From: a virus
Direction: 5' to 3' (one strand)
Virus record (IMG/VR): IMGVR_UViG_3300037231_000119
Location: 64,001 to 128,000 of that record
Length of the DNA: 64,000 bases
Shown: in pieces, positions 2,127 through 55,832 of the stretch
Numbering within the stretch: position 1 is the first letter of the stretch
Layout: the number at the start of each line of letters is the position of its first letter
The notes under the pieces: model-generated
What the model saw: only the letters and a program-made list of their open reading frames with translations
Told to the model about the DNA's origin: nothing
The model's database searches: none
Program-made: the position numbers and the translations under genes

Positions 2127-4877
2127 TTAGCTTGCTGACTGTTGAACCGCACTGAGAGCCAAATTAATTGCTACAAAGTATATGCTCGTAGTCAATTTTG
2201 CTTCAACATTCACAGTCATAGTGGGTGCCGAAAGTGTAATGCTGGCATTTTTATATCCAAGAGGTGCATCATTCGACGTAGTCACCATCTTAAGCTTCTT
2301 GTAGAAGTCGAATCTCTGTTGCAAGAAGCTCAGAGCAGAAGCTGCAGTGACATCGGCCACAGATCTTCCAACAATTGCACTCTGAAAACTTTGCGCGAGG
2401 TCAAGAGCTAAAATGTCAGATAGATATACGGCCTGAATCGAATTATAAACGAAGCTCGAATTTAGGCCAAATGAGGTCTGATCGGATACCCACAGGATTC
2501 CACTTGTATTTTGAGTTAGAACCAAAAGGCCCGCAATGATCGCCTCACTCACATCCGCTGGATCACCAGAGTCATATCCAACTGGGTCCTGGAACGAAAC
2601 GATATTGGCCAAGTGGTTACAAATAGATTTGTAGAAACCGCCGCACTGTGTGCCAGCCGCTACTGCCGCCGCATACCAAGGCAAGAACAACTGATTCACA
2701 CCAGCCGAATTTACCTGAGTCACTTGCTGACACGTCAGAGAGCAACGATAGCTTGCCAAGCTCTGAGCTTGTGCCCTAGCATTAGCAAACGTGTCATTGA
2801 TGGACAGAATCGCCATACGATTATGTTTCAGGGTAGGGGTTGAGAACTGAATGCAATGTGACTTAAGAAGCTCATTGATGGCGTCGATCGTATAAGTCGA
2901 ACTTGGATCCGTATTACCGGCCGTAATATCTTTACTCGCATCCTGAGAGAACAAAGGAACAATGATATTGACCTGGATACCGCCCATTTGAGCGATCGCA
3001 TTTACAATGTCATTCGCAGACGTTCCACCCAAAGCGCCACCAGTCAAGAACACCATAGAGCCTGGTACTGGAAGACCGGAAGTAGCCGTAGGAGTAAAAC
3101 CAACCGCCGTAGAAGTATTCAATTGATTCTGGAATGTAAACAGGGAATTCTTCACACGTCCTGGTTGATCTCCGTCCGTAGAAGCAATCCCGATAGCCGT
3201 AACATGATCCAGAGAAGAGGTTGGATTCGAAGTAGCAGAGCTTCCAACCGTTGCCGTATACCCTGGCTGCGTGTTAATGAATGCCGCCAACTGGCCAACC
3301 GTAGTATACTGAGAAAGAACGATTGAGAGATTAGCGCCAGTTCCACCCGTGACGGTCGTTGTCAGCATGGTTGAGTTAATGGTCATCGTTCCGGTCGTTC
3401 CAGCGTACCCAACACTCAAGGCAATAGCTGGAGCAATATTGAACGTCTCATTAATCTGCGCAGTCGTATTGATAATCGAGACTTCAACCGCTGGCTCTTC
3501 GCTAGAAGTAATAAGTCCAGCCGTCATACCAAGAGCGGCCAAATCACCAGGAGTAGAATCGATCAACTCAAAGCTTTGTCCAAATCCACTCGCGTATGGT
3601 GTACCTTCAGCAGCCATCGTGAACACCAGAGTATTCATCGCAGACCCAGCAGATGCCGTAATACCAGCAGGGAGAAGAAGATTCAGCTCCGTAATCAACT
3701 CAGCAATATTGGAATGCGCAGCTCCGACGATAGTTCCAGGTGGAAAGCCAGTGACCGAATTGGTAGGGCTTGATCCCACGTTTCCAGTTACAACCGAAGA
3801 CCCAGTATTGGTAACCCCGGAAGAACCCAAAAGACCGAATGAACCAGCATAGTTAAGAAGAGGGGAATTCTGAGCATTGACAACCGTTGCGGCACTGAGA
3901 GTAACTGCGCCCGTAAGAGCAATCAGGGAACCGTTAACAGTTCCACCCAAAGTATCTGTAATGCTATCTTCCGCAATGACGTTACCAGCGAAGGTTCCGC
4001 TAAAGCCAGAATTGATCGTAGCCGAAGATCCAACTACCCAGTAGATGTTAGCAGCTGTCGCACCACCGGTCAGCGTCATGGTCGGGATACCACCAGAACC
4101 GGTAACCAGAGTGCTAGAGGTCTTGATAACATACACCCCAGCGCCATTGAAGGTTAGGGTTCCAGCTCCAGAAGCTGCCAAGCTAGCTGCGCCCGTGCTA
4201 TAAACACCGGGAGTCAACGTTTGGCCGTCGAGAGTCGCAGAGATCGGAGTAGCGGTCATACCGGTCAGGCTAGTATAGGCAGACATGGCGGCAGATTGAC
4301 CAGCGGCCGATTCAGTAGGAGTAACAGGGCTAGAAGATCCGGAACTGAGTGTAATTACGTGAGATGCTCCACCGTTCACACGAATAGAGAACGTATCGCC
4401 ATCCAGAGCGGTACCAAAAGCAGGGACCGTATTCCCAGTAACTTGTGGAGAAACTTCGTTACTGATGGAGGTAACCGTGTAGTTGAAGAGATTTCCAGCT
4501 ACACCGAAGTTAAGCGCCGTGAGAGTTCCATAACCAGGAACGGAAGCGGTCGCCTGTGTACCCTCGTTGGTTTTGAGGATATAGATGGAAGTAGCCGTTC
4601 CGGAAATGTCTGGATCGTTACTAGGAGCCGAAAGAGCAGCAAAGGCGTCAACGATTGGACCCGAGCCGTAAATAGCTCTTACTTGGTTGTAAGCGCTAGG
4701 CCCGAAGAAGTTGTTAGCCAACGTAACTTCAGAGTAGTTAGGGCCTTGAGCAGCTTCACCCATGATAAGAACAACCCCTGAACTCGCAAGTCCGGAAGCT
4801 GTTGAAATTACAGTGGTATTTACGTAGGCGCCAGGGATTGGGGTAGAAATCCAGGGAGTATTTAAAAATTGTGCCAT
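2127..4877 (-). CDS. Contractile tail sheath protein with an inserted DUF3494 (ice-binding-like) domain
   Basis: Sheath N-terminus IPGAY..VLIMGEAAQGP..YGSGPIVDA; C-terminal sheath region LTGGALG, IIVPL, GLLVL, DQTS; upstream of the tube gene. Confidence 0.9.
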   Translation of the reverse strand: MAQFLNTPWISTPIPGAYVNTTVISTASGLASSGVVLIMGEAAQGPNYSEVTLANNFFGPSAYNQVRAIYGSGPIVDAFAALSAPSNDPDISGTATSIYILKTNEGTQATASVPGYGTLTALNFGVAGNLFNYTVTSISNEVSPQVTGNTVPAFGTALDGDTFSIRVNGGASHVITLSSGSSSPVTPTESAAGQSAAMSAYTSLTGMTATPISATLDGQTLTPGVYSTGAASLAASGAGTLTFNGAGVYVIKTSSTLVTGSGGIPTMTLTGGATAANIYWVVGSSATINSGFSGTFAGNVIAEDSITDTLGGTVNGSLIALTGAVTLSAATVVNAQNSPLLNYAGSFGLLGSSGVTNTGSSVVTGNVGSSPTNSVTGFPPGTIVGAAHSNIAELITELNLLLPAGITASAGSAMNTLVFTMAAEGTPYASGFGQSFELIDSTPGDLAALGMTAGLITSSEEPAVEVSIINTTAQINETFNIAPAIALSVGYAGTTGTMTINSTMLTTTVTGGTGANLSIVLSQYTTVGQLAAFINTQPGYTATVGSSATSNPTSSLDHVTAIGIASTDGDQPGRVKNSLFTFQNQLNTSTAVGFTPTATSGLPVPGSMVFLTGGALGGTSANDIVNAIAQMGGIQVNIIVPLFSQDASKDITAGNTDPSSTYTIDAINELLKSHCIQFSTPTLKHNRMAILSINDTFANARAQAQSLASYRCSLTCQQVTQVNSAGVNQLFLPWYAAAVAAGTQCGGFYKSICNHLANIVSFQDPVGYDSGDPADVSEAIIAGLLVLTQNTSGILWVSDQTSFGLNSSFVYNSIQAVYLSDILALDLAQSFQSAIVGRSVADVTAASALSFLQQRFDFYKKLKMVTTSNDAPLGYKNASITLSAPTMTVNVEAKLTTSIYFVAINLALSAVQQSAS
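3711..4326 (-). other. Circularly permuted DUF3494 ice-binding-like beta-solenoid within the sheath (aa ~185-388)
   Basis: SAY..L, LDGQTLTPGVY, LTFNG, LTGGATAANIYWVVGSSATI, FAGNVIA..SIT, GSLIALTGAVTL, then the normally N-terminal segment AGSFGLLGSSGVTNTG..VTGNVGSSP..SVTGFPPG. Confidence 0.85.
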
Positions 4878-5207: not shown

Positions 5208-5780
5208 TTATCCAGGAAGCTTCGGTTTTGGTTGGGCCTTGATTCCTTCAAGACGTTCTTTATGGGCATCTTTGGAGCCTTCTTTTGCGATCATTTCGCC
5301 AATACCATCGCCAGATTTTCCGTAACCAACAGCGCGTTTTGCACGATCACCGGCAATAGGATTTAGAGGATCCTCGCCTTTATCCATTTCCTTAGCCTTA
5401 GACCCCTTTTTCATTTCCATTTTGCCCATAAATTTAGCCAGCTTATAAGAGCCCTTTTCATGATGCTTAGGATCTTGATTCGTAGCTTCATGCTGCTGAA
5501 CGTCTTGTTCAACCTTTTCACCAAGATCGGCATCGGCTTTAGCATCTGGGTTCTGTTCAGACATTCCCATTTTCTTCATAGGATCTTCAGATTTGCCCAT
5601 CTTAGCTTTAATGGCGCCGTCGATCTTATCAGCAGACTTTTCAGAATAGCCTTCTTTTTTGAGCTTAGAATGAATTTTAGCCCAATCGCCTTTAGCCAAC
5701 GTAGAGTTTTTATACATCTCTTCCGCTTTCTTCAAAACGGCGATGGCGGCTTCGGCTGGTGTAAATTTTTTATCAGACAT
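5208..5780 (-). CDS. Putative internal head protein with multiple K|S/A/G motifs
   Basis: LKKAE, LAKGD, MGKSE, MDKGE; late motif at 5801-5809 and SD GGAG. Confidence 0.65.
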   Translation of the reverse strand: MSDKKFTPAEAAIAVLKKAEEMYKNSTLAKGDWAKIHSKLKKEGYSEKSADKIDGAIKAKMGKSEDPMKKMGMSEQNPDAKADADLGEKVEQDVQQHEATNQDPKHHEKGSYKLAKFMGKMEMKKGSKAKEMDKGEDPLNPIAGDRAKRAVGYGKSGDGIGEMIAKEGSKDAHKERLEGIKAQPKPKLPG

Positions 5781-7148: not shown

Positions 7149-7964
7149 TTACCCCTTATATTTCTGCAAGATCGCTGGAAGGACACTATTATTCCATTCA
7201 TTTTGGGCCCACTCTGCGGCATCTGGGAAAAATCCCTTAGCGTTTTGAGCCGGATATTGCCACTTCCCATCATCGCCTTCTATGACAGTTCTGAAGGTAG
7301 TCATTACTTTCTTAGCGTTACCATTCTTATTCAAAACCTGATATATGTGGAGCCTTGCGAGTTGCTCGGTATTTCCACGCCCCGGTATCTTACTTGGAAT
7401 GTCAAAAACATGTAAGGGGAGAGGATGTCCATTAGGCCCCATTTTACTTATTCTCGGGCTCCCATTAGAATCCTTTTCAATTCCGCTCCACGAAAGCTTT
7501 TGACCTTTTAGAAAACCTTTGATACTTCCAATAAGCTCCTCATTCTTAGCAAGAGTCTTAATATTCAAACTGTCGGATTCTTTACCTTGTGGCATTGGAA
7601 TAATTTTGTAATGCTTGCCTTTATTAGGGCCATTCTTAACAGTCTCAGAATCTTTCAAGAGACCGTATTCTCCAGGCTTACCCTTCATATCCCACGGCTT
7701 ACCTTCTTCGATAGGAACTGCCGGTTCATTTAACGTGATCTCCCAAAGAAAGTCGCTGATTTGTACGGCTTGGCTTAGACTAGCTAGATATTTTTTTGCA
7801 ATCTGAGTATTTAGCTTTTGTCCCACCTCTTTTACCATGTTGGCGTGGGTAGCTTCCGCAAGCCCCTTAATACCTTTTTGAACATCCTTCGCGATTTCTT
7901 TTGCAAAGTTATTCAGGTATTGGGTTAAAGAGGAGATGTCTAGGTTGACTTTGATATCGCTCAT
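7149..7964 (-). CDS. Putative neck/head-tail protein
   Basis: IEEG..WDMK..LL, IIP, TFRTV..KWQYP pattern and synteny. Confidence 0.5.
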   Translation of the reverse strand: MSDIKVNLDISSLTQYLNNFAKEIAKDVQKGIKGLAEATHANMVKEVGQKLNTQIAKKYLASLSQAVQISDFLWEITLNEPAVPIEEGKPWDMKGKPGEYGLLKDSETVKNGPNKGKHYKIIPMPQGKESDSLNIKTLAKNEELIGSIKGFLKGQKLSWSGIEKDSNGSPRISKMGPNGHPLPLHVFDIPSKIPGRGNTEQLARLHIYQVLNKNGNAKKVMTTFRTVIEGDDGKWQYPAQNAKGFFPDAAEWAQNEWNNSVLPAILQKYKG

Positions 7965-9151
7965 AGAATACCCATCATCTTCAATTTAGGCTCATTCCAA
8001 AGCTCAGCATTAGGAAATTGTGTAAGAAACCAATCCCATTTAATTTGGGAATGAGGTCTCATATACCCCTTAATTTCGACCCAAGTATTAGGCTCTATAA
8101 GAAATAGATCTGGGCGATATGTCTTAGCTGTCCCAGATTTGGTAAAAAGGGGCGTCGTGAATGTTTGGGGTTGCCACAAAAAATCAATCTTTTTGGAATT
8201 AAGGTAATCCACTACTTTGGGTTCGTAACCGGCCTGACAAATAAGTTCCTCCCCAGTTTTCCAGTGTATTTTTAGGGTAGTATTTTGTAGTTTTTTAGCG
8301 TGCGTTAATGCATATGAGGGATCCTGAGATAGATGTTCTACCCCATACCTCTCCAGATTAGTTTTCCTTATCTTATCTAGTTTTCTTTTGGGATGACCTA
8401 TAAATTCCGCTCTAGGGAGTGACCAGAATTCACCGTGGTCCTTGTCAACGAAACGTGCCGTTTCATTCAGCCCCGTGTAGGTAGTTTCGTCTAAAATAAA
8501 TTCGTCCCCGAACTTCTTTAATTTTAATCTTACCTCCTCAATATTCAATTTCTTACCCTCATTTGCCCTATCGGGATGCCCATGGCCATCCATAACTCTA
8601 GCTGGGGTAGAAATCCATTCTCCGTAATCTACATCCATAAATGAACATTCGCTACGAACTTTCGTATGAGTAGAATCTATTATAGAGACAGTATTGCCAT
8701 GTTTCTCAAAAATGATTTTTTTGATATTTCTCAAGGGGGTTTTTGTTCTGTCATACCCTCTTTGAGGATGACCTCTCCCCCTCAAAACACCAATAACTGT
8801 CGCGGGCCATTCCCCATAGTCGCTATCCACAAAAATAGCCTTCTTGTTTACATTTACATAAGATGTTCGCACAATACGTACCGTATCACCATGTACGCCC
8901 TGAATGCGCTTCTCGATATCATCCACAGAAAGTCTTTTCCCGCTAAACGCATACCTTTTTCTCTTTGGATGGCCCTTGCCGTCCCTATAAAGCGCTGCCG
9001 GAATTGCAGTGAAATTACCAAAAGCCTCATCTATAAAGACAGCGGTAGTTTTTACGTCTACGTAGGAGGATTCTTCCATCCCAATAACGTATGGAAGTCT
9101 TCCCTGGACTCTTTCTAGAACTTCCTTACATGTAAGCTTTTTAATACCCAT
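7961..9151 (-). CDS. Homing-endonuclease-like protein: D..G.F/W...GHP repeats plus PD-(D/E)XK nuclease
   Basis: Four repeats ending GHP; TNLERYGVE motif; YRPDLF..WVEIKG; TTGACA at 9181-9186 upstream. Confidence 0.75.
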   Translation of the reverse strand: MGIKKLTCKEVLERVQGRLPYVIGMEESSYVDVKTTAVFIDEAFGNFTAIPAALYRDGKGHPKRKRYAFSGKRLSVDDIEKRIQGVHGDTVRIVRTSYVNVNKKAIFVDSDYGEWPATVIGVLRGRGHPQRGYDRTKTPLRNIKKIIFEKHGNTVSIIDSTHTKVRSECSFMDVDYGEWISTPARVMDGHGHPDRANEGKKLNIEEVRLKLKKFGDEFILDETTYTGLNETARFVDKDHGEFWSLPRAEFIGHPKRKLDKIRKTNLERYGVEHLSQDPSYALTHAKKLQNTTLKIHWKTGEELICQAGYEPKVVDYLNSKKIDFLWQPQTFTTPLFTKSGTAKTYRPDLFLIEPNTWVEIKGYMRPHSQIKWDWFLTQFPNAELWNEPKLKMMGIL

Positions 9152-9187: not shown

Positions 9188-9415
9188 TTAATTCTTTGGG
9201 GGTTTTACTGGAGCGCCTGATTGAGGGTCCTTCACTCTGCCTTCCAACATGGAGACGAACCTGATATCTTCTGGATCGTTCGGATTTACCCATTTCATTT
9301 GCGACTTACTTGATAATCCGCCCGGTGGGATAGGGGTTTTTGCAACATGGACAGTAGTATGTTTGGAGGGTAATTTAGCTGCTGAGGGTAGTCCTGCTAC
9401 CCCACCGCTTTTGGG
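9188..9415 (-). other. Probable programmed -1 frameshift (C CCA AAA, 9409-9415) giving a 73-aa C-terminal extension to 9397..11775
   Basis: In-frame X XXY YYZ heptamer; hairpin GGGGTAG-cagga-CTACCCT 5 nt downstream; -1 frame closed by TGA just before the heptamer and open to TAA at 9188-9190. Confidence 0.75.
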
Positions 9416-11775
9416 TCACTCTGACCCTCCGCTTTCGGTCCATCTGGCGCACCGGATTGTGTAGCTTCCGCGACCGCACCCGGATCCTGAGGTGCATCTG
9501 AACTCATCTTAGGCTCGAGACCTAAGAGTTTGCACAGCTCGATCATGGCCTTAAGCATCTGGATCGTGCTTTGGTAAAGTCCGGGACTTTGATCTTTAGC
9601 CTCTTCTAGGAATGCCTTATTTGCCTTAAATCCCTGTAACGTTTGGGATACTTGATCTATAACCTGCGCCCTCTTTTGTTCCTGCGCGTGGTCATCTAAA
9701 CCACCCTGGAGAACTCCAGCCATATCTGGTTCATCCTGGCCATCTTCAGCCATCGGATCTTGTCCCGATTCTTGTCCCAATTCTCCATTTTGTCCCGATT
9801 CCTGAGCCATCTGATCCGCATCGCCCTGTGTACCTTGATAGTCTGGAGAGGCCATACGATCGATCGGACCTTCTTCTCCGCCTTGACTTCCAGGGCAATC
9901 TGGACAGTTACATTCATGGTCGCTATTCTGCATGTCCTTTTCAGCATCTGAAACGTTATTCTTTTGCTTATCGCCAAAGTTTTCGGGGACAGAGGCCCCC
10001 TCTTCCATCTCGTCGCCTTGAGGAAGTTCAGTATTGTCAATCTTTTTAGCTTCAGCCTCAGGAGTTTGGTCACCCTCTCCTGGCTTCTGATCCAATAGGT
10101 CTAAAACTTCTTCAGCCGTTTCATGTCCTTGTAGATTGGGATCTTCTTGGCCAGTTTGATCTGGCTGCTCTTCGATAGCGTCCCCATACATCTCTTGGCA
10201 CTGCGGACAGTTGTCTGGTTGCTCGGCAGACATATCTTGGACACCCAAAGCGGTCGCATCATGTTTTGGGCAATTCGGGCAGTTACAAATATGGTCTACG
10301 TCTTGTCCTTCGGGAGTCCCAGCTTGAGCTTCTCCAACGGTTTCGGATTCACAATAAGGGCAACCATCTACGCCGCCAGCCTCATCGGGAGTATCTTGGC
10401 AGTATGGGCAGTCATCCTCTTCCGAACTTTCCTGACAATATGGACAATCATCCGTATCTATCCCACCAGTATTTTGCTGGGAAGCATCGTATTCCTTACA
10501 AGCATCACAATCATGCATCCCAGCCGAACCATCCGCATTTTCTTGAGCATCCAAATCTTGGCAATAAGCACAGTCGTCCGTACGGTTATCTTCTTGATCA
10601 GGATTCTGAAAACCCTTGTCTTCTTTGTCGGCAGCTCCGTTATGGAAGCCCTCTTCATGCTTATGAAGATTATGGGTATGTTCAGACTTATACATCTCGG
10701 GCTTAGACATCCCCGCCTTGGAATCAGATCGTAGTTCTGATGCTGGATCGCTGTGTTGGTACGCAGCTCGACTATGTTGGTCAGCTATTTTAGAATGGAT
10801 ATCTCTATGTGCGGGATCCTTAGCTCTTTCTTTGCTACCGAACGCTCCTTGTTTTCCTTGATGAAAACGCCCCAGATCATTGTGAATTTTGGCCGCGTCG
10901 GCATGATCTTGCGGAGTGTATTTTAAAGTATTGGCAAACGCTTCAGATCGAAAATGAACCGGTTTCTTAGATTGGGTATGCCCCACAATATCGGAATCCT
11001 TGGGATGAACTGGTGCCGCATCCGAATCTGATTTATGAAGACCGCATGTATGTTCATACTTTACCATAGGCGCTGTAGTAGGTGCTGGGACTACGGTTAC
11101 CACGTGCCTCATTATGGCGCCATGTTTCTGATCTCTTTTATCCGCAGCACTATGTAAGCCCTTTTTACTTCCCACCGTTCCTTTATAGTGAAGAGTGCCG
11201 GTAGTGGGGCTATGAGAAGCTAAATGATATTTTTCGCCAGGCTTTAGATCTGGGGCGCCATAGAGACCGTGTTCACCTTCAGCTTTATGTAAATCGCACT
11301 TCATATTTTCGCTCTTTTCCAGATAAGCATCCGCAAGCTTCATCTCTTCTTGATTGGCAGTTTTAGCCTTAACTTTTTCGCGCATTTTATCAATGCCCTT
11401 TTCTACTTTAGGTCCATACCAAACCGTCTTATTCTTACCTGTAGCTTTGGCGTAGAGGAGACTTCTACCCGCTTCAGACAAGTCCTTACCAATACCAACT
11501 GAAATATTTAAGTCGGTGGCCTCGTAGTACTTACTTCTTAGCTCTTCCACATCTTTAGCGGCTTCAAACGGGATGCGAAAACTCCCCTCATCTCCACCAC
11601 CAGAAATTCTTTTACCACCACGCTCTGATACCCACTGATTAACGATCTCGTGACCCAAATCGATCTTGGCCGAGATATTGTGGAGAGCCTTCTCATCATT
11701 TGCAATGATGGCCTTACCGCACTGGCGACCAGCACCGTCCGCATCATAAGTAAGTCTGAGCATGGGCTTACTCAT
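9397..11775 (-). CDS. Putative head polyprotein: N-terminal mCpol (minimal CRISPR polymerase)-like domain, His-rich modules, acidic CxxC-repeat region
   Basis: YDADGAG...GGKRISGGGDEG...ISVGIG...A..SLLYAKATGKN; LEKSE, LHKAE, LHKSD, MYKSE; eight CxxC units. Confidence 0.7.
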   Translation of the reverse strand: MSKPMLRLTYDADGAGRQCGKAIIANDEKALHNISAKIDLGHEIVNQWVSERGGKRISGGGDEGSFRIPFEAAKDVEELRSKYYEATDLNISVGIGKDLSEAGRSLLYAKATGKNKTVWYGPKVEKGIDKMREKVKAKTANQEEMKLADAYLEKSENMKCDLHKAEGEHGLYGAPDLKPGEKYHLASHSPTTGTLHYKGTVGSKKGLHSAADKRDQKHGAIMRHVVTVVPAPTTAPMVKYEHTCGLHKSDSDAAPVHPKDSDIVGHTQSKKPVHFRSEAFANTLKYTPQDHADAAKIHNDLGRFHQGKQGAFGSKERAKDPAHRDIHSKIADQHSRAAYQHSDPASELRSDSKAGMSKPEMYKSEHTHNLHKHEEGFHNGAADKEDKGFQNPDQEDNRTDDCAYCQDLDAQENADGSAGMHDCDACKEYDASQQNTGGIDTDDCPYCQESSEEDDCPYCQDTPDEAGGVDGCPYCESETVGEAQAGTPEGQDVDHICNCPNCPKHDATALGVQDMSAEQPDNCPQCQEMYGDAIEEQPDQTGQEDPNLQGHETAEEVLDLLDQKPGEGDQTPEAEAKKIDNTELPQGDEMEEGASVPENFGDKQKNNVSDAEKDMQNSDHECNCPDCPGSQGGEEGPIDRMASPDYQGTQGDADQMAQESGQNGELGQESGQDPMAEDGQDEPDMAGVLQGGLDDHAQEQKRAQVIDQVSQTLQGFKANKAFLEEAKDQSPGLYQSTIQMLKAMIELCKLLGLEPKMSSDAPQDPGAVAEATQSGAPDGPKAEGQSDPKAVG

Positions 11776-15016: not shown

Positions 15017-16660
15017 TTATTTCTCTTTTCCGTAGGCTTCTCTGACTTTTGCAACGTGCCAGTGATTTTTGATATCCTGTTTATTTTTTAAAGCGCCTTT
15101 TGTTCCCTGAATTCCATTCAGCCACCCATAGGCTAAATTGTCTGGATTGTTACCCAATACATGCTCCATATGGGATAGGTGCCTATCAGCGATGGTGTTT
15201 TCGAGACCCTTATGGTCGTTCATATAATTATGAAGCTGTTGACCCTTAAGCGCTAAAGCCTTGCCATGTTTTGAGGCCAAATCTTTATGGCCTTTGATAG
15301 TCTCTCTAATAGTTTCTGGCATCAATCCATAGGCGCCATACGCATGCTCAGCCCCATGAATTGGTCCACCACCTGCGGCATGATTCGTGTTTTTTCCACC
15401 ACTCGACTCAACAGAGGCGATAGCCCTAAGCATCTTAGCGTGGTCATAGTTTGATTTAGGTTGGGCGTGTTGAATGCTGGCAGGAGACCGATTTCCAGCA
15501 TCTGTTTGAGGAGCAGATCCAGCTAAGGCGCCAGCCATACCAAGTGCAATACCGGCATTTTTGAGTGCGCCTTTTTCCAAAGACTCGCTTTTATCAAAAT
15601 CTGGATTGTTAAGTCTAGCTCTAGCCTCTGAAAGATAGTTCGGACTTCCAGGCTTAGATTTCATTTTATTCTTTATTGGAGCCATTCTTTCAGCTTCGAG
15701 ATGCTCTAATTGCTGTCCCGACTCTCTCTTTATATCTTTAGCATGGCTGATATTTTTTGATCTGGATTGTTGAGAAGCCATCACGGAATTAAGCTCATCA
15801 CCTGCATTACCGGCCTTCGCTTTATTGGGACTAAGAGCGGCTATGCCCATAAGAGCGCCAGCGGTTTTTTCTTTCCAGCCCTTGTGGAGTTCACATTCTC
15901 CCTTACTCACTTTCTCAGGCAACTTCTTTCCCTTGGTCGCCTCATCCCATTCATGGACACCAGCTTCACCACCTAGAGCTTTTTCTCCATTAGGGGTGTG
16001 CGCCCATCTCTCTTGTGCTAGACTTTCGTAAGGCTTGGCCAATGGCTTCTTACCGAGAACATTTTCAGCTTTAGTAACCGGCACATTCACCTTAGCCGTA
16101 AAATCCGAATGATCCGGAAACTTGGGTTCGGCAGTATCGGCTTCGTGATGGTAAGTTTTGATAGTTTTGGGGCCCTTATTGAGAACTGCATTTCCAAAAG
16201 ACAATCCGGCTTCATGGGCCGTTTTTGCACCGGAAGATTTAATTTTATCCCAAGTACCTTTATCAACACTCACATGCGGAGACCATTCAAATTTTGAAGG
16301 GTGGCCCATATGAGCAAACTTTCCATTGTGCTCCTTCATCTTATCGGCCGAGTTCCCCTTTAATTTGACGACAAATACGTCGTTCCCATTACGATCTTTA
16401 AACTGGGCAGGCTCTATTTGCGTATTTTTAGCATCAGGGGGATTTAGTGGGAGATGTTGGGCCAAATCATGAATGGAGTGAAGATGGTCCTTTTCTTTAT
16501 TGAATTCTTTCAGACTAGCGTGATATCCAATGTTATTATCGGGCCTGTGAGTTTGGCCGTTGATCTTTACGGGATAGCCAAGAAGGATTCCCTCTGAGGC
16601 TAGTTTCGCATAACCGGCAGGATCTTCTTTTTTGTGGAGGTTAGGCGCATTTTTTGACAT
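15017..16660 (-). CDS. Putative head polyprotein: Acb1-like 2H phosphodiesterase, small modules, two hydrophobic segments, lytic transglycosylase (SLT-like)
   Basis: YHASL and PHVSV 82 aa apart; AIASVESSGG..AYGAYGLMPET..AYGWLNG; VTKAE, VSKGE, LHKGW, FDKSE, LEKGA. Confidence 0.75.
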   Translation of the reverse strand: MSKNAPNLHKKEDPAGYAKLASEGILLGYPVKINGQTHRPDNNIGYHASLKEFNKEKDHLHSIHDLAQHLPLNPPDAKNTQIEPAQFKDRNGNDVFVVKLKGNSADKMKEHNGKFAHMGHPSKFEWSPHVSVDKGTWDKIKSSGAKTAHEAGLSFGNAVLNKGPKTIKTYHHEADTAEPKFPDHSDFTAKVNVPVTKAENVLGKKPLAKPYESLAQERWAHTPNGEKALGGEAGVHEWDEATKGKKLPEKVSKGECELHKGWKEKTAGALMGIAALSPNKAKAGNAGDELNSVMASQQSRSKNISHAKDIKRESGQQLEHLEAERMAPIKNKMKSKPGSPNYLSEARARLNNPDFDKSESLEKGALKNAGIALGMAGALAGSAPQTDAGNRSPASIQHAQPKSNYDHAKMLRAIASVESSGGKNTNHAAGGGPIHGAEHAYGAYGLMPETIRETIKGHKDLASKHGKALALKGQQLHNYMNDHKGLENTIADRHLSHMEHVLGNNPDNLAYGWLNGIQGTKGALKNKQDIKNHWHVAKVREAYGKEK

Positions 16661-17648
16661 CTGCCCCTCCTAAGAAATCTAGGCAACGTTGAATGCAGGA
16701 TTGTTTATCTAAATCCCAGTCCACCTCTTTGATATGGAGGATTTTAATGTCCTTAGTCGCAAAATGAGCATCCTTAAGGTCGTGGTAATTATAGACGTCT
16801 TCGTCTGGCCAATGTTTACGCGACCTTTTTAGGCCCTTAAAGGAATGATGATAGGTGCCATCAAATTCTATGCCAAGTTTTAGCTCTGGAACGTAGATAT
16901 CTATATCAAAACGTTTAATATGAGGTTTCCCCTCTATGCTAACTTTAGAACGTAACGTATTAGCGGTAGGAAAAAACGCTTTGACGTTATCCGAAAGCTC
17001 TTTCTCTTTAAGGGAAATGCTTCTTGATTTTTTCATATGTGAACATACAATATCCAGTATACCCAAATTTCTCGCTGCATCCCAGGCACCCGCCCCATAT
17101 TTTTTAAATTCCCCACGACTATTGTATTTTAGAGCCTCTTGATGGATCTTTTCTACCGTATCCCATTTGACTTCCCACAGGGGGGTCATATGAACACAAA
17201 AATCTTCTATTATTCCCTGCCTGTGCATCGCGCTATAAACACCCGGATGTAAATCTCTAAGTTGCTCTTTACTATTGCAAGTAAGTGCTATGCGCTTAAG
17301 ATCTTCTAGGGAATAAGCCTCATTGCACTTTTCGCCCATAAAGGCGCAAATATCGTCAAGCCACCCCATTCTTTGAGCTTTGTCGTAAGCTCCTGCACTG
17401 CCCCTAGCAAAAGAAGTTCTATCGGCATAATTATATGCTTCTTTTTGTACTTCCTCAAAAGTCTCCCATTTAGGTTCCCATAAGACTTCCATATGGGAGC
17501 AAATCCTGTCTAAAAATTCGGGACCTTTTCGCCAAGCTGCCTTATAAGCCGCATTACTATATTTTTGAAAATCAATACGGCTAAGATATTTGAGAGCTTC
17601 CGCCCTCAATTCTTCTGGTGTCCATCTGTGCCGTTTTTTAACGCTCAT
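16641..17648 (-). CDS. Homing-endonuclease-like protein: helical repeats plus Vsr-like nuclease
   Basis: W..E...EALKY.SR..F....AY..A...LD.ICSHM repeats; FDIDIYVPELKLGIEFDGTYHH; upstream TTGTAA-N17-TAGTAT. Confidence 0.75.
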   Translation of the reverse strand: MSVKKRHRWTPEELRAEALKYLSRIDFQKYSNAAYKAAWRKGPEFLDRICSHMEVLWEPKWETFEEVQKEAYNYADRTSFARGSAGAYDKAQRMGWLDDICAFMGEKCNEAYSLEDLKRIALTCNSKEQLRDLHPGVYSAMHRQGIIEDFCVHMTPLWEVKWDTVEKIHQEALKYNSRGEFKKYGAGAWDAARNLGILDIVCSHMKKSRSISLKEKELSDNVKAFFPTANTLRSKVSIEGKPHIKRFDIDIYVPELKLGIEFDGTYHHSFKGLKRSRKHWPDEDVYNYHDLKDAHFATKDIKILHIKEVDWDLDKQSCIQRCLDFLGGADVKKCA

Positions 17649-20499: not shown

Positions 20500-21006
20500 C
20501 TATCTGTTGCTTTTTCTCATCTCAATTAGAAGATTCGTTATAGCTATCATTTCAATATAAGATATGGAATTATTTTTAATTAGATTGCATGTGGAACAAC
20601 AAGGAACCACATTGTCAGCATAGTAGTCTTTACTGTTATCTTTTCTGTCTAGGCCGTGCCCTGTTTCTGGGAGTCTTCCCTTGCAGTAATGGCAGGAGTC
20701 ATCTTCCACTATGGAAATCCATTCATCCAAAGTAATGTGCCAGCTATAGCCCCTATCTTTGGCAGCTATTATACCTCTTTTGAATCTACTTTTGTTCTTT
20801 CTAGCATGCCCATACGATTTTGCTCGTCTTTCATCTCTATTCGCTAAGTAGTATTTTTTAGATTGAGCGTTCAATTCTTCCCTATTAGAGTTGTTGCGCT
20901 CTATCGTACATTTTTGACAATAAGTCTGAACACCGTCTTTTCGGGCCTTATTTTTTTGGAAATCCCCGATATCTTTTTCTAAATTGCATCCTTTACAGAT
21001 TTTCAT
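20500..21006 (-). CDS. HNH homing endonuclease
   Basis: KICKGC..F..YC..C; CHYC..GLDRKDNSKDY..NVVPCCSTCN; upstream TTGACT-N16-TAATCT. Confidence 0.8.
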   Translation of the reverse strand: MKICKGCNLEKDIGDFQKNKARKDGVQTYCQKCTIERNNSNREELNAQSKKYYLANRDERRAKSYGHARKNKSRFKRGIIAAKDRGYSWHITLDEWISIVEDDSCHYCKGRLPETGHGLDRKDNSKDYYADNVVPCCSTCNLIKNNSISYIEMIAITNLLIEMRKSNR

Positions 21007-21121: not shown

Positions 21122-22525
21122 TTAGGTAAACAATTGTCCTTGCAAATTCTCGACGATTGCATTTTTCCGTGGCGCCTCTACTGCGAGCGTAGTCCACCTG
21201 TAAAAAGCATTGTTAATGCTCAATTGAGAGATACCGAGCTGAAGCTTTTTAAAGCCACTCAGTTCGCCCATGTGTCCCGTATCCTTCTGAATCAGGAAAC
21301 CCGTGAGAGCGCCAGGAGCCATGTTGCCAAGGTCCGTGAACGTCGCACCACTTGGGGCCGCCGCGATATTCCCGATGAAGAGAACACCCGGAGAAACCGT
21401 AGCTGCCACACCGGCCGCCGTACGATACACACGGTAGTAGAGAGCGCCAGCAGCCGCACCGATCGTCAGAGTGACCTTGTTACCAGCGAGAGCAGGCGTA
21501 ACGGTCGAAACGGCCGAGAGAGGCCCTTCACCGTAGGCGTTAACCGCAGCAACAGCGTACGTATACGCAGCAGCCTGAAGGAGAGACCCAGCGGCCCCGC
21601 CGTCAGCAGAAGCCAACGTAGGCTGAGCAGGAGCGCCCTGAATCTGGACGTTGATCGGATTGATCTGTTTACGCAAATATTGCGACATTTCCATACTGAC
21701 GGCACCTGAGCTAGTCCACTGCGTGCGAAGATGCGCGCCAGTAGCTTCCTGAGGTGAACCAGCGAGAACGATACGTTCCTTAGCCTGGCTGATCTTGTTA
21801 TAAGCAGAGAGGCTGGAAGGATCCAACATCAGCTTGTCCGCGCGACCCATGTTAAGGGCAGAACGAACCGAGATATCTTCGATCAGGGACTGCGTAAGAG
21901 CAGCGCCACCAGCCGAGAACACAACCGTTGCGCTCGAACCGTACGAAGCGAACATCAGATCCTGTCCATTGCGCTCGAAATCCGAGGCGCGAACCTGGAG
22001 ATCCCAACCACGCATATTGGCGAGAGCAGGAACTAGGGCAGGATTGCCATCGAAGACTCCGTTGTTTGAGAAATCAGAGTTACCAGAGAACAGGTCGAAC
22101 TCGATGTCCTGAGCAAGGTTAAGGGCCGCATCCTGAGCTTGGCGCTCTTCAGCAGTCACCTTGTCAAACGTTTCAACAGCGTTCGCAACGAGCGAATGTT
22201 CGCGTGTATCGACGTAGTACGCCATTGGGACCACGAGACGAGCAGCTTGGCCAGTCTTTTTCGCGCCCAGCATACCTTCGTAAGCCGCTGATCCGCCGAA
22301 ACGGCCGACAGACAATTTACGATTGTACTGATAGAGATTCGACTTCGTATTACGAACATCGAGCATCTTCTGCAGTTTGATGGTCTCTTCGGCAGCCGTG
22401 ACATTGATCATCACTGGAGCCAGATCTTCGATTTGATAAGCAGCGCCCTGTACGAGGGTAGAAGGGGCGGCATTATATGAACCCGCTTCGAGTGCCTTCA
22501 TCAGAGTTTGGAGTTGGTCTAACAT
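21122..22525 (-). CDS. Major capsid protein (SPO1/Twort-like type, FN3-like insertion)
   Basis: KALEAG..GAAYQIEDL N-terminus; IEFDLFSG; YTYAVAAVNAYGEG..YYRVYR; follows the scaffold; strong terminator. Confidence 0.9.
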   Translation of the reverse strand: MLDQLQTLMKALEAGSYNAAPSTLVQGAAYQIEDLAPVMINVTAAEETIKLQKMLDVRNTKSNLYQYNRKLSVGRFGGSAAYEGMLGAKKTGQAARLVVPMAYYVDTREHSLVANAVETFDKVTAEERQAQDAALNLAQDIEFDLFSGNSDFSNNGVFDGNPALVPALANMRGWDLQVRASDFERNGQDLMFASYGSSATVVFSAGGAALTQSLIEDISVRSALNMGRADKLMLDPSSLSAYNKISQAKERIVLAGSPQEATGAHLRTQWTSSGAVSMEMSQYLRKQINPINVQIQGAPAQPTLASADGGAAGSLLQAAAYTYAVAAVNAYGEGPLSAVSTVTPALAGNKVTLTIGAAAGALYYRVYRTAAGVAATVSPGVLFIGNIAAAPSGATFTDLGNMAPGALTGFLIQKDTGHMGELSGFKKLQLGISQLSINNAFYRWTTLAVEAPRKNAIVENLQGQLFT

Positions 22526-22556: not shown

Positions 22557-23462
22557 CTACTTAAGTAGATGGCGGACAGATTCGACATTTTTACTAAAAT
22601 AGTAACTGTTAATGGCATCACGATCGGACTTAGTCAGAGAAACATCTTTTGCTTTAGCCAGAAGCTTCGCATCGATTTCACTCTTAGTAAGAGGTTTTTC
22701 GTTTTGGCCGCTTTCGGTCTTAGCGATGATATCCAGGGATGTAATCGCTTTACCGGCAGGAGCAGTTTTCTCAACGAATTTTTTCAGGAAGGCAGCAACA
22801 GCGGCAGTCTCAGCCTTAGCAGCTTCGAGTTCCGACTTAAGCATGCTAATTTCCATAGAAGGTTCTGATTTTTCGAGAGCTTGAGCACCGGTAGAAGCGG
22901 GACCTTTGCCTTCTTTTTCAGATTGACCGTCTTTAGGGCCACCGTTAGGACGGTAACCTTCAGCATCTTTAGCGCAATCTTCCATCTCAGCTTTAGCCAT
23001 GCCATCTTCGCATTTAGCCATGCCCATGCCTTCTAGGCACTTTCTCACAGCGTCATGATGAGCCTTCAGTTCAGGCTTAGACATCGAAGAGTACATCGAG
23101 TGCATGTGACCCATATCTTCGTCGTCGTAACCATGATCTTCATCGGCAGGCGCAGCACCATCTTTGGCCGCCATACCTGGCTGTTCTTGATCGTTTTCGC
23201 CTGGCTTATCTTCAGATTGCTGATCTTGATCCTTGACGCCCTTATCTTCGGGCTTTTCGGTTTCCATCGGCTTCTTTTCTTCGCCACTTGATTCGCTAGA
23301 AGCCTTCTTCTCGTCCTCTTTCTTAGATTCATCCTTTTTGGGAGGAAACTCGGATTTGGCGAGACCAAAACTTTTTTCAGCTTTGGCAAGATGCTTCGAA
23401 AATTCTTTTTCCACATCGGCCATCAGGCTTGAAAGTTGTTGTTCGTCGTACATGATTTTCAT
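22557..23462 (-). CDS. Capsid scaffolding protein
   Basis: Charged low-complexity protein directly upstream of MCP, with about nine (L/M/I)xK(S/A/C/T)(E/D) motifs. Confidence 0.75.
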   Translation of the reverse strand: MKIMYDEQQLSSLMADVEKEFSKHLAKAEKSFGLAKSEFPPKKDESKKEDEKKASSESSGEEKKPMETEKPEDKGVKDQDQQSEDKPGENDQEQPGMAAKDGAAPADEDHGYDDEDMGHMHSMYSSMSKPELKAHHDAVRKCLEGMGMAKCEDGMAKAEMEDCAKDAEGYRPNGGPKDGQSEKEGKGPASTGAQALEKSEPSMEISMLKSELEAAKAETAAVAAFLKKFVEKTAPAGKAITSLDIIAKTESGQNEKPLTKSEIDAKLLAKAKDVSLTKSDRDAINSYYFSKNVESVRHLLK

Positions 23463-24402: not shown

Positions 24403-24903
24403 ATGAAAACATGCACAAATCCGATATGCGATCAAATAAACCCCCAACCCTTAACGCAATTTTATAAAAAGAAGAGTGGGAGAGATGGACTAAATGGTAG
24501 GTGTGTAAAGTGTACCAATAAGCAAACAGATGCTTGGTGTGCCCGTAATACCGAAAAGGTGAAGGTTACCAAAAACAAATGGACGACCAACAATACAGAA
24601 AAAGTTAGGGAAAATGGCCAAAAATGGGATAAATTAAATCCAGGTAAAAAAGCCGCTCAAGTTCGTAAGTATCAGGCTTCTAAGCTTAATGCGACTCCCA
24701 AATGGCTTACTAAAGAACAACTTAAGGAAATGCAGGCCCTATATGTTGAAGCGGCCCTAAAAACCAGAGAAACTGGAATCCCCCATGAAGTCGATCATGA
24801 GGAGCCCCTACAGGGTAAGAATATCTGCGGATTGCACGTACCATGGAATCTGAAGGTGGTTACGAGGACCGAAAACCGTAAAAAGAGCAATACGGGTAAA
24901 TAG
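24403..24903 (+). CDS. HNH homing endonuclease
   Basis: ATPKW..Y..HEVDHEEPLQGKNICGLHVPWNL..EN..KSN. Confidence 0.85.
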   Translation: MKTCTNPICDQINPQPLTQFYKKKSGRDGLNGRCVKCTNKQTDAWCARNTEKVKVTKNKWTTNNTEKVRENGQKWDKLNPGKKAAQVRKYQASKLNATPKWLTKEQLKEMQALYVEAALKTRETGIPHEVDHEEPLQGKNICGLHVPWNLKVVTRTENRKKSNTGK

Positions 24904-24931: not shown

Positions 24932-26791
24932 ATGTCAACTTATATTTCGGGCGTAGCTAGTTGTTCCGCAATTGATACCGCTGGGGAAATTGTAGATATT
25001 AGCGGTCTCGACATAACCTCCTTAGCTCGTAGCGGTACTTGTAACTGGGAACACAAAGCCGACACCCCGGCACAAACAGTTGGCAAAATACTAAAGGCAA
25101 AAAAGATCTTTAGTGAAAAAGACTGTGAAGATTCCAATCAAAAACACTTTTGGGATAAAACCAAACTACCGTTCGTATATATAGTTGCGGAGCTTTTGGA
25201 TGATTATACGGCTAGTGCAAAAGAATGTGCTGGTCAGATGAGGTACAGTAAGGACCATCCCGAACTATCGGCAATTTTAGGATTTTCCGTTGAAGGAAGT
25301 GAAATACCCGGAACCAGGAAAAATTCCATGCTGATCACACGATCGATTGCAAGAAAGGTTACGCTTACCGTATCTCCAGCAAATAAGTTATGTATTGCTC
25401 AAATTTTCGAGAACCCAGAACAAAAATCCCAAGTCAAAGATGATTTTGAAGAATTGTTTCGTTCTGACCAAGAAGCTATCACTCTCTTCAAGTCAGGTGA
25501 AGGCGAAAAGATTTACGAATCCTATTTGGCCAAAAAAGAGCATGAGCCTAAGAAGCCGTGTAAACATAAGAAAATGAAAAAAGATGAATTTGGTTATCCA
25601 GATTCCCCTAAAACTTCAGCGCCCCCTCCAGAACCAAATAAAGCAAACGCCCAAGCTATGCAAAATGGCGCTGAATCAGGCGGTCCAAGTTTCTCTCAGG
25701 GCCTATCTAACCTGGCCAATGGCTTAATGGGTAAAAGTGAAAACTTCGGATGGTCTAAGGGTAAAGTGGATAAGGATAAAAAGGCAGTTCACTACGAACA
25801 CCCAACTCATGGCACGGTTTCCGTAATCAGACACGATAATGGCGATTTCCACGTAAAGCATCGTGGGGCTTTGGCTGGTGTTGGTGGAGTTAAGGGCTCT
25901 TTCCCTACTTCTGGAGAAGCCGGTACTCACGCTAAGAAATATATGTCTTCCTTAAGCCAGGGTAAAACTTTGGCACCACAAATGCATAATATTTCATCAA
26001 CGGACGTTGCGAGCAAAAAACATCTTAAAAAAGCCATCGATGCCGGTTCCTACAATGCCGCCCCCTCTACCCTAGCTTCCGGTGCCGCTTATCAACGCGA
26101 AAGTCTTGGTTCAAAGCCTGCAACTACTGGGGCTGAAGACCATAACTTTCAGGGGACTAAGAAGAAGGACTGGAATAAGAGATCGAAAGAAGATTACGAG
26201 AATTGGCCCCAAAAAGAGAAGTTTGAGAAGTTTATGTCTGCTAGAATGCCTCATTTGGCATTAGGCGAGATAAAAGCTCTGGGCCGGGCGATATGCTTGA
26301 AAAAGAACATCGAGGCGGAGAAAGCTCTTGGTAATTTGGTTTTGGGTAAGTCTGAAGAGGACCCCAAACTCGGCAATCATTTTCTTTTCAGTGCTGAAAA
26401 TCCAATGCATCCCCATAAAAATGAAAGCAGGATGGACCATAAACAGACCCTGGTACACTTAAAAAGTAAGGGTTTTGATGCCAATGAAGTTAAGGGGCAT
26501 TATGGCGCTCCGGAGACCTCGATCATGGTCCACAATGTTAATCCCAAACAGGCAGAGCATCTTCACGGAATAGCCTCCAAACTTGGTCAGGATAGTTCGA
26601 TCTATAGTAATAATGGCAAGCATGAGATGCGCTACCATCACGGTGAAAAGGCAGGAAAGTCCCATTTAGGTTCTGGTACCGAATTCCATAAAGAAAAGCC
26701 TAAGGATTTCTATACTACTCTACCTAATGGAAAACACTTCACTCACAATTTTGATTTTGATCAATTACATAATAGTAAAAAGAAAAAATAG
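24932..26791 (+). CDS. Prohead protease polyprotein: HK97/U35-like protease, internal copy of the MCP N-terminus, C-terminal SAM lyase-like domain
   Basis: ISGVAS..IDTAGEIV..G.D..NWEH..GFSVEG..VTLT.SPAN; KAIDAGSYNAAPSTL; FSAENP..GHYG..ETS..GQDS. Confidence 0.85.
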   Translation: MSTYISGVASCSAIDTAGEIVDISGLDITSLARSGTCNWEHKADTPAQTVGKILKAKKIFSEKDCEDSNQKHFWDKTKLPFVYIVAELLDDYTASAKECAGQMRYSKDHPELSAILGFSVEGSEIPGTRKNSMLITRSIARKVTLTVSPANKLCIAQIFENPEQKSQVKDDFEELFRSDQEAITLFKSGEGEKIYESYLAKKEHEPKKPCKHKKMKKDEFGYPDSPKTSAPPPEPNKANAQAMQNGAESGGPSFSQGLSNLANGLMGKSENFGWSKGKVDKDKKAVHYEHPTHGTVSVIRHDNGDFHVKHRGALAGVGGVKGSFPTSGEAGTHAKKYMSSLSQGKTLAPQMHNISSTDVASKKHLKKAIDAGSYNAAPSTLASGAAYQRESLGSKPATTGAEDHNFQGTKKKDWNKRSKEDYENWPQKEKFEKFMSARMPHLALGEIKALGRAICLKKNIEAEKALGNLVLGKSEEDPKLGNHFLFSAENPMHPHKNESRMDHKQTLVHLKSKGFDANEVKGHYGAPETSIMVHNVNPKQAEHLHGIASKLGQDSSIYSNNGKHEMRYHHGEKAGKSHLGSGTEFHKEKPKDFYTTLPNGKHFTHNFDFDQLHNSKKKK

Positions 26792-55619: not shown

Positions 55620-55832
55620 ATGTTTGATACGCATAAGTTGAATGAAACGGGATTTGAAGCAGTTAAGAATTTTAAGACTTTGATGTCCAAAGCGGTCCAA
55701 GAAGCGTTGACCTATCTGCCAGAAGGTCGAGAACGATCCGTTTTCGTCACCAAACTGGAAGAGGCGATGTTTTTCGGTACGAAGGCGATTGCGTCTAAGC
55801 CAGAAAACCACACTGAAATCACTAAGTACTAA
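55620..55832 (+). CDS. Acb2/Tad1-like helical-hairpin protein (possible cyclic-nucleotide sponge)
   Basis: [26 protein letters not shown] fits the P.GRE.S...TKLEEA..W...AIA signature; SD AGGAG. Confidence 0.65.

Follow-up and report, generated by a model that had tools for sequence, protein, structure and literature searches.

Why should a phage place a nucleotide cyclase at the front of a protein encoded among its virion genes? This question is raised by a 64,000-nucleotide stretch of viral DNA, hereafter the window, which covers bases 64001-128000 of the 162,446-bp IMG/VR record IMGVR_UViG_3300037231_000119, a genome scored as complete by CheckV. The source phage is a myophage, an Mx1-like uncultured relative of Myxococcus phage Mx1. 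A first-pass annotation had proposed that one minus-strand protein of the window begins with a domain of the minimal CRISPR polymerase (mCpol) type, the fold of the OptS synthase in the bacterial Panoptes defence system, and that the phage might use it to resupply or jam the nucleotide signals of its host. Our computational follow-up confirmed the observation and partly supported the interpretation. The reading that we favour, at a probability of roughly 45%, is that the open reading frame (ORF) at 9397-11775 encodes an active cyclase carried as detachable cargo by a head or neck protein, which would be delivered with the DNA to act against the cyclic-nucleotide immunity of the host. The parts of the protein on which this reading depends are the following.

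9397..11775, minus strand: 792-residue ORF in the 0 frame, comprising the mCpol module, an acidic linker and a C-terminal carrier domain
11419..11763, minus strand: mCpol palm domain, residues 5-119, recognised from Pfam, PDB sequences, an AlphaFold (AF2) model, Foldseek and conservation
11305..11418, minus strand: two conserved helices at residues 122-136 and 142-157, an extension of the cyclase module with YLEKSE at its end
9895..10572, minus strand: acidic disordered region with eight CxxC units, mostly D-D-C-P-Y-C-Q
9517..9729, minus strand: conserved C-terminal three-helix domain, residues 683-753, with a predicted local distance difference test score (pLDDT) of 81-95

Sequence and predicted structure show that the protein begins with a genuine mCpol palm domain of ~120 residues, whose active site is intact. 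All four strings that had been quoted in support of this assignment were located in the ORF (YDADGAG at residues 10-16, GGKRISGGGDEG at 53-64, ISVGIG at 91-96 and AGRSLLYAKATGKN at 102-115), a correspondence far beyond chance. Pfam mCpol (PF18182) matches residues 9-119 over model positions 3-113 of 114 with an E-value of 7.7e-11 and 42.8 bits, against a cut-off of 26.4, and the first 152 residues alone give 2.9e-12 and 47.4 bits. At E<=1 this 152-residue module otherwise matches only the Cas10 palm2 model (E 0.047) and one stray entry; Pfam GGDEF (PF00990) does not match at this threshold, the GGDE loop itself being present. When PDB sequences were searched with phmmer, the only real matches were the mCpol/OptS chains 9nwn and 9mnr (E ~5e-5, full length and gapless), in an alignment that places D11 on D6 and D62 on D57 of KpOptS. 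Mutation of D6/D57 is known to abolish 2',3'-c-di-AMP synthesis by KpOptS (PMC12657218).

Structure prediction and conservation lead to the same assignment. The AF2 model, built from 96 homologues, has a pLDDT of 94-98 over residues 1-150, and its six best Foldseek matches in the PDB are all OptS/mCpol chains (template modelling (TM) scores of 0.81-0.88 and root-mean-square deviations (rmsd) of 1.6-2.1 A over 116-119 columns), followed by GGDEF domains and Cas10, with the GGDEF type at an rmsd of 3-4.7 A. The key residues are D11/D13, the loop G60-G-D62-E63, S35, K110 and G113-K114. Among 181 aligned domains, D13 is kept in 178, D62 in 178, D11 in 169, E63 in 165, S35 in 173, K110 in 179 and G94 in all 181, and D13 and D62 are invariant in 96 divergent sequences; catalysis is therefore favoured. 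S35 corresponds to the adenine-contacting S30 of KpOptS and is kept, and the position of D39, the counterpart of KpOptS N34, is occupied by D, N, E or Q in different members of the phage family. The first-pass annotation had named the absence of a palm fold and the loss of the catalytic aspartates as fatal to its proposal; the model shows the palm fold, the aspartates are kept, and the acidic mCpol pattern that it described is borne out by a Pfam score above the cut-off.

A minimal mCpol protein stands alone at ~115-130 residues; here the domain is the N-terminus of a protein of 792 or 862 residues, and a free 17-kDa cyclase would exist only if the cleavage proposed below occurs. The helices that follow the palm domain end in an almost invariant Y-L-E-K-S/A-E. 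The linker beyond them (residues 157-682, ~500 residues) is disordered, with an isoelectric point of 4.6, and leads to the three-helix C-terminal domain, which is kept throughout the family, including orthologues without mCpol, and which we propose to be the anchor or carrier part. Neither the linker nor the C-terminal domain has a Pfam match, and the structural genes nearby have none either; the ESM Atlas gave nothing for the carrier C-terminus. A BLAST search of the C-terminal domain and linker against the proteome of the phage itself likewise found no paralogue and no shared targeting peptide.

The two lengths of the protein would arise from a putative frameshift near its end.

9409-9415, minus strand: slippery heptamer C_CCA_AAA (codons P788-K789), five codons ahead of the 0-frame stop
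9188..9408, minus strand: remainder of the -1-frame extension, with AGC at 9407-9409 as its first new codon and its stop at 9188-9190

The heptamer is of the canonical X_XXY_YYZ type, the -1 frame opens directly after a TGA at 9416-9418, and the extension adds 73 residues, giving a predicted long isoform of 862 residues. In an orthologue (locus L038) the last 59 residues, which are read in frame there, match this peptide at 46% identity (E 2e-15). Roughly half of the relatives have the extension joined in frame to the carrier, and in the others it lies in another frame, mostly -1; CCCAAAA or CCCAAAG stands at the frame junction in five relatives. A hairpin begins just past the slippery site, with an energy no better than that of shuffled sequences (z 0.11). 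From these sequence features, the cyclase gene very probably yields both the 792- and the 862-residue forms, and production of two lengths at a fixed ratio is characteristic of assembly proteins. Separately, loci L015, L023, L026 and L033/L036 have the extension in the +1 frame with respect to the carrier ORF; an indel, an assembly error or another mode of recoding could account for this.

The position of the gene agrees with a virion-related role. Recognisable genes of the window include the following.

2127-4877, minus strand: tail sheath
21122-22525, minus strand: major capsid protein
33778-35604, minus strand: portal

ORF 9397-11775 lies within a co-directional structural block, between the capsid and sheath genes, so that the description of its product as a head protein holds at the level of a head/neck gene block. 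Its ATG overlaps the stop of the upstream 305-residue gene (ATGA), with GAGAGGG upstream, an arrangement that points to translational coupling. No PHROG family was found for the 792-residue protein or for seven of its neighbours, and promoter and terminator scans around the cyclase gene gave matches at chance level only.

How might the cyclase be released from its carrier? The first-pass annotation had noted that LEKSE follows the cyclase closely; the string is indeed at residues 152-156 and is likely a protease site, since the same motif recurs across the head module. We defined a strict motif (hydrophobic-x-K-S-E/D) and a looser one (hydrophobic-x-K-S/A/G-E/D), whose principal occurrences are as follows.

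11308..11322, minus strand: LEKSE, residues 152-156, at the end of the folded cyclase module; putative prohead-protease site
10681..11292, minus strand: region of ORF 9397-11775 with three further copies, LHKAE at residues 162-166 (11278-11292), LHKSD at 246-250 (11026-11040) and MYKSE at 361-365 (10681-10695)
22557..23462, minus strand: acidic scaffold-like protein of 301 residues that adjoins the major capsid gene, with seven copies of the looser motif
24932..26791, plus strand: putative prohead protease with a C-terminal S-adenosylmethionine (SAM) lyase domain (residues 497-603) behind LGKSE at residues 471-475

The strict motif occurs 16 times in the 5,750 residues of the head-module proteins, against a mean of 1.1 and a maximum of 7 in 1000 composition-preserving shuffles, and 6 times in the other 44,306 residues encoded by the genome (Fisher p 3e-11). 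The enrichment recurs in nine related loci, with 8-16 copies observed where ~3.3 are expected. Because it is so strongly enriched in head-module proteins, the motif is probably a prohead-protease site, and we regard cleavage there as a well-supported inference from sequence. Copies are found at module borders, namely after mCpol (residue 152), after the 2H phosphoesterase domain of the companion protein described below (residue 195) and before the SAM-lyase domain (residue 471); in relatives a copy also follows the 2H domain. Most close relatives have the site behind mCpol at an unchanged distance from GGDE, and distant family members again show Y-L-x-K-A/S-E/D. A cut at K154 would, by calculation, free a basic module of 17.0 kDa.

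Two further proteins carry similar sequences. The N-terminus of the major capsid protein (21122-22525) reads L-M-K-A-L-E-A-G, is conserved in the complete relative G007 (L038 706-2091) and resembles the head-module motif; it may mark the removal of a propeptide of ~10 residues by a cut after K. A small protein encoded at 5208-5780 on the minus strand, beside the sheath gene, has 4-5 copies of the motif, a scaffold-like density that was unexpected so near the tail genes, and its homologues in relatives lie ~4 kb downstream of the carrier (e.g., L020 14372-15235) and are likewise rich in the motif.

The cyclase is accompanied by genes of the kind that phages use against nucleotide-based immunity.

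15017..16660, minus strand: companion protein of 547 residues with an N-terminal 2H phosphoesterase domain (residues 1-175, 16136-16660) and VTKAE at residues 195-199
55620..55832, plus strand: 70-residue protein with an Acb2/Tad1 hairpin (Pfam PF24729), a candidate nucleotide sponge

The gene at 15017 had been called Acb1-like. Its assignment to the 2H fold stands: the motifs H47-A-S and H129-V-S both have histidines that are invariant in nine sequences, the AF2 model of the domain has a pLDDT of 83.6, and all of its top Foldseek matches are 2H enzymes (E ~1e-3, TM 0.4-0.5), including the poxvirus cGAMP phosphodiesterase, that of Burkholderia phage BCSR5, Usb1, LigT and Acb1. Acb1 itself is not among the nearest matches: Acb1 structures rank only 23rd and 28th, the 187-residue domain does not match Pfam Acb1 (PF23474) at E<=1, and a sequence profile of the domain matched no PDB chain. 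Its ESM Atlas neighbours are viral 2H/Acb1 clusters. The rest of the protein includes a weak SLT-like region (residues 404-456, E 0.018), and three copies of the head-module motif occur in the ORF; the protein looks like a second case of cargo on a carrier, possibly an ejected cell-wall-cutting protein. The assignment of the gene at 55620 to Acb2/Tad1 was narrowly upheld, the Acb2_Tad1_hairpin model scoring 27.9 bits over residues 24-58, where the cut-off is 27, and 27.3 bits when the genome was searched.

Co-occurrence of phage mCpol with Acb1- and Acb2-type genes, which had been put forward as a check, was found in part. In every close-clade locus with enough flank (23 loci, by local profile searches) the 2H gene lies 3-6 kb upstream of the mCpol gene; of the mCpol-less loci, the three that have enough flank lack it, as does the complete genome G007, where the whole gene is missing. 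The mCpol-less loci form one clade, and the joint absence of mCpol and 2H is therefore one event and not a statistical association. The 2H gene was also not found in Mx1 or in two distant loci. The Acb2/Tad1 family is present in only three of the seven complete mCpol-bearing genomes.

The phage mCpol family itself is, from sequence comparison, old, large and lineage-wide. An exhaustive HMMER search with the first 152 residues returned 727 representatives clustered at 50% identity, of which 504 reached E<=1e-10, and nearly all of the 150 representatives listed place mCpol at the N-terminus, or close to it, in a protein of 350-990 residues; a search of the family for short stand-alone homologues yielded only one fragment. 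All 75 scanned members match Pfam mCpol. Since a few of them also bear a GNAT acetyltransferase or a DUF5661 domain, the carrier can hold other cargo. Some members (P0046, P0060, P0061, P0045 and others) have 100-300 extra residues before mCpol or have the domain in two stretches. Loci were scanned with alignment A1, the divergent alignment A2 being too variable for this purpose. Recent capture of a host optS gene was considered and rejected in view of the ~25% identity to OptS, the GGDE loop that OptS lacks and the architecture fixed across the family. Regarding the hosts, the one metagenome-assembled genome that contains relatives is labelled Deltaproteobacteria/Myxococcota, and Myxococcota are the likely hosts, an assignment that is weak; mCpol occurs in two of 131 genomes of that phylum, one of the two being the phage-type copy itself.

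Among 50,697 deposited phage records, tblastn found a family member only in Myxococcus phage Mx1; a weak match to the portal of Pectobacterium phage Jarilo (E 0.07) was rejected as chance. The Mx1 protein (OR576727.2 33963-35369; L002 7947-9353) matches the family profiles in both the cyclase (3.5e-23) and the C-terminal domain (2e-15) and is the only cultured member. Its GGDE loop reads LGAV and its K110 is replaced by Q, and for these reasons the Mx1 copy is probably catalytically dead. The gene just before the Mx1 sheath gene has a weak internal SAM-lyase match. Judged from listings of the literature that mentions Mx1, no virion proteome of this phage was found.

A clade without the domain offers a natural deletion. 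The complete 170.6-kb relative G007 has, at the syntenic position, a gene for a 477-residue protein that starts directly with the CxxC region, and mCpol was found nowhere in that genome; three further loci have an orthologue lacking mCpol. A tree was built from the conserved neighbouring 318-residue protein, Mx1 serving as an outgroup on a long branch; in it the loci without mCpol group as a single clade (99/96) nested among mCpol-bearing loci, which we read as a single loss event. Because a nested clade has lost it, the cyclase is dispensable for the particle and accessory rather than a structural need.

Other genes of the window touch the cyclase less directly. Four genes resembling HNH or endonuclease VII-type homing endonucleases lie between structural genes (7961-9151, 16641-17648, 20500-21006 and 24403-24903), one of them directly after the frameshift extension of the carrier, and some of the four are missing from the corresponding positions in relatives such as L038. 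The 1037-residue ORF at 36441-39554 on the minus strand matches the large terminase in its C-terminal part and helicase and endonuclease PHROGs over residues 78-336, and may be a terminase with an inserted or fused module. A GroEL-type chaperonin (PHROG 5725, E 5e-80) is encoded at 40180-41958 on the minus strand.

What, then, would the cyclase do? In the reading that we favour, the carrier would take the protein into the procapsid, where the prohead protease would cut at Y-L-E-K-S/A-E and free the basic 17-kDa module, which would be too large to leave the shell. The module would enter the next host with the DNA, oligomerise in the manner of OptS and constitutively convert nucleoside triphosphates, probably ATP, into a cyclic di- or oligonucleotide; OptS-type enzymes are constitutive, and KpOptS forms stable tetramers (PMC12657218). 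The product would disturb the cyclic-nucleotide immune signalling of the host beside the 2H phosphodiesterase encoded ~4 kb away: the 2H enzyme might erase alarm signals while the cyclase writes a calming or jamming one. Panoptes-type guards would be the most obvious target and not the sole possibility.

Several points weigh against delivery of an active enzyme. Packaging, cleavage, ejection and catalysis are all steps that we infer from sequence, and the prohead protease was identified by a PHROG match that covers only residues 2-43 (42 residues). The motif, for which the support is statistical, was defined after inspection of the data. The protein may belong to the head or to the neck, as no neighbouring structural gene has a recognisable family, and two distant members (L004 and L005) are on phage-like contigs and not obviously within structural blocks. 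The Mx1 copy has lost the GGDE loop, so the domain can persist without catalysis. A co-delivered phosphodiesterase might destroy the product of the cyclase. Finally, Cap15_CD_rec and SAVED had no match in the 162-kb genome, in a search that had no positive control and in which CARF was not searched.

The first alternative to be weighed is a special case of the favoured reading, close to the proposal of the first-pass annotation: the delivered cyclase would resupply the nucleotide (e.g., 2',3'-c-di-AMP or cA3) that keeps a Panoptes effector off, so that the phage could use the 2H enzyme and the Acb2-like protein without setting off the guard. Its appeal is evident, as the closest solved structures are Panoptes OptS, the adenine-contacting serine is present as S35 in 173 of 181 domains, and the phage genome encodes a 2H phosphodiesterase as well as an Acb2/Tad1-hairpin protein, where Acb1-type phosphodiesterases and Acb2 sponges are known to trigger Panoptes (PMC12657230, PMC12657218). 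A co-delivered cyclase would be a logical antidote, and the mCpol and 2H genes are together in 23 loci and both missing in the mCpol-less clade. However, that joint absence is a single event in the tree, with both genes in one inherited block, and fewer than half of the complete mCpol-bearing genomes have Acb2/Tad1. Panoptes seems to be uncommon among the likely hosts, given that two of 131 genomes of the phylum have mCpol and that one of these two mCpol genes is the phage copy, and the phage clade is old (727 clusters), ~25% identical to OptS and equipped with the GGDE loop that OptS lacks. The second base-contact position, N34 in KpOptS, is variable (D, N, E, Q), decoy nucleotide that filled the sponge would lower its value against CBASS, and no effector or receptor gene was found in the phage by the Cap15_CD_rec and SAVED searches just described, with their lack of a positive control and of a CARF search. 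We thus consider this special case unlikely. Its sharper form, in which a capsid-borne writer is injected together with the 2H eraser and resupplies the inhibitory ligand of Panoptes-type guards whenever the eraser or the Acb2-like sponge strips the pool, seems to us slightly more doubtful.

The remaining alternatives depart from delivery, from immunity or from catalysis. The cyclase might not be injected and might act late in the producing cell, quieting suicide systems until lysis, setting the timing of lysis or excluding superinfection; we hold this as doubtful as the writer-and-eraser form. Expression with the late structural genes would suit such a role, as would the constitutive activity of OptS-type enzymes, by which any cytoplasmic copy would be active (PMC12657218), and the distant members that are not clearly in structural blocks. 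Yet the invariable fusion to a conserved carrier, an isoform ratio set by frameshifting and the lack of stand-alone forms imply a need for physical incorporation, the protease-type motif lies exactly at the module boundary, and the 2H and SAM-lyase modules use the same layout. It is improbable, in our estimate, that the product is an ordinary second messenger of the c-di-GMP or c-di-AMP type that reprogrammes motility, surface polysaccharide, development or receptor display rather than immunity. Myxococcota rely heavily on c-di-GMP, annotated GGDEF proteins exist in other phages, the phage domains keep the GG(D/E)E loop and GGDEF domains are the next-best structures; but Pfam matches only mCpol and the Cas10 palm and not GGDEF, OptS is clearly nearer than any diguanylate cyclase (rmsd 1.6-2.1 A against 3-4.7 A), and the companions (2H phosphodiesterase, SAM lyase and Acb2-like protein) are of a counter-defence type. 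The domain could also be a non-catalytic, oligomerising or nucleotide-binding head on a scaffold-like assembly protein, in keeping with the stable tetramers of KpOptS (PMC12657218), with the retention of the Mx1 copy without a catalytic loop and with the assembly-protein hallmarks of the carrier, which is acidic, disordered and made as frameshift isoforms. A purely structural role ranks low because the active site is conserved and an mCpol-less clade exists: the aspartates, the GGDE loop and K110 are kept in >90% of ~180 representatives at 25-60% identity, which would be unexpected without catalysis, and the nested clade does without the domain. We therefore judge this last alternative very improbable.

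If the favoured reading of a delivered, active cyclase is correct, phages not only degrade or sponge immune nucleotides but also write them at entry, which would constitute a new class of counter-defence and would offer a direct way to ask whether an outside agent can pacify guard systems. Should the pairing of writer and eraser also be true, it would add a fourth layer to the nucleotide arms race and the first virus-delivered synthase of an immune signal. The combination of a frameshift and a lineage-specific protease motif may explain how several enzymes (cyclase, 2H phosphodiesterase and SAM lyase) are loaded into heads. The case is readily testable, as the module is small and looks soluble, its homologues have been solved and assayed, and Mx1 is cultured, its own copy looking dead.

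How does the phage protein compare with known systems? In the papers found from 2025-2026, mCpol has been studied experimentally only as the bacterial Panoptes synthase; here the fold is on the virus side and retains an intact active site, and its family, which comprises no fewer than 700 sequence clusters, is linked to a single phage lineage (Mx1-like). The family mCpol was reportedly defined by Burroughs et al. in 2015. No phage-encoded mCpol or anti-Panoptes factor was found in the literature on Panoptes types I and II and a 2026 review, a survey that did not cover Burroughs et al. 2015. With Panoptes OptS (PF18182; KpOptS PDB 9mnr and 9pd0; 9nwn; PMC12657218, PMC12657230, PMC13577387) the phage domain shares the minimal palm fold, the metal-binding aspartates (D6/D57, equivalent to D11/D62) and the adenine-contacting serine (S30, equivalent to S35). 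It differs in being only ~25% identical, in being encoded by a phage and not in a defence island, and in keeping the canonical GGDE loop that OptS has lost; moreover, OptS is a stand-alone protein of 14 kDa, whereas the phage domain is the N-terminus of an 86-kDa head-module protein. The Panoptes operon pairs optS with optE, or mCpol with CARF-TM, whereas the phage gene has structural-module neighbours and no adjacent 2TM-beta or CARF-TM effector. GGDEF cyclases and the Cas10 palm belong to the same superfamily fold with its GG(D/E)E hairpin, but the phage domain is ~40 residues shorter than GGDEF domains, has no Pfam GGDEF match and has no Cas10 context. Similarly, the N-terminus of the protein encoded at 15017-16660 has the 2H fold and two HxS/T motifs in common with the viral 2H phosphodiesterases (Acb1, 7t26/7t27; poxvirus, 9bkq; BCSR5, 9q2g), but it lacks a sequence match to Pfam Acb1 or the PDB, superposes at TM 0.4-0.5 and has a long tail with an SLT-like region.

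The idea of a delivered cyclase is, in general, not new, because Iyer, Burroughs, Anand, de Souza and Aravind described GGDEF and 2H domains in 2017 in the polyvalent proteins of phages and conjugative elements, which are delivered with DNA, and suggested that such a cyclase, once delivered, could disturb the nucleotide signalling of the host (PMC5512222). That paper does not mention mCpol, the protease motif, the frameshift or the Mx1-like lineage, and we have not found described elsewhere the phage mCpol family, its carrier with a frameshift, the protease motif or their place in this lineage. Polyvalent proteins string several conflict domains on a MuF or portal protein, whereas here one enzymatic domain is borne by a lineage-specific carrier. 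Phage T4 packages its internal proteins IPI*, IPII and IPIII and the enzyme Alt in the capsid, where they are cut by the prohead protease gp21 before being injected with the DNA; IPI* then blocks GmrSD, and Alt ADP-ribosylates RNA polymerase. To our knowledge, no nucleotide cyclase is among T4-type cargo. The logic that we propose is the same, with an accessory enzyme taken into the procapsid, trimmed at a motif shared with the scaffold and delivered; but where T4 uses a short N-terminal targeting peptide and L/I-x-E sites, in the Mx1-like phage the anchor would be C-terminal and the motif would be hydrophobic-x-K-S/A/G-E/D.

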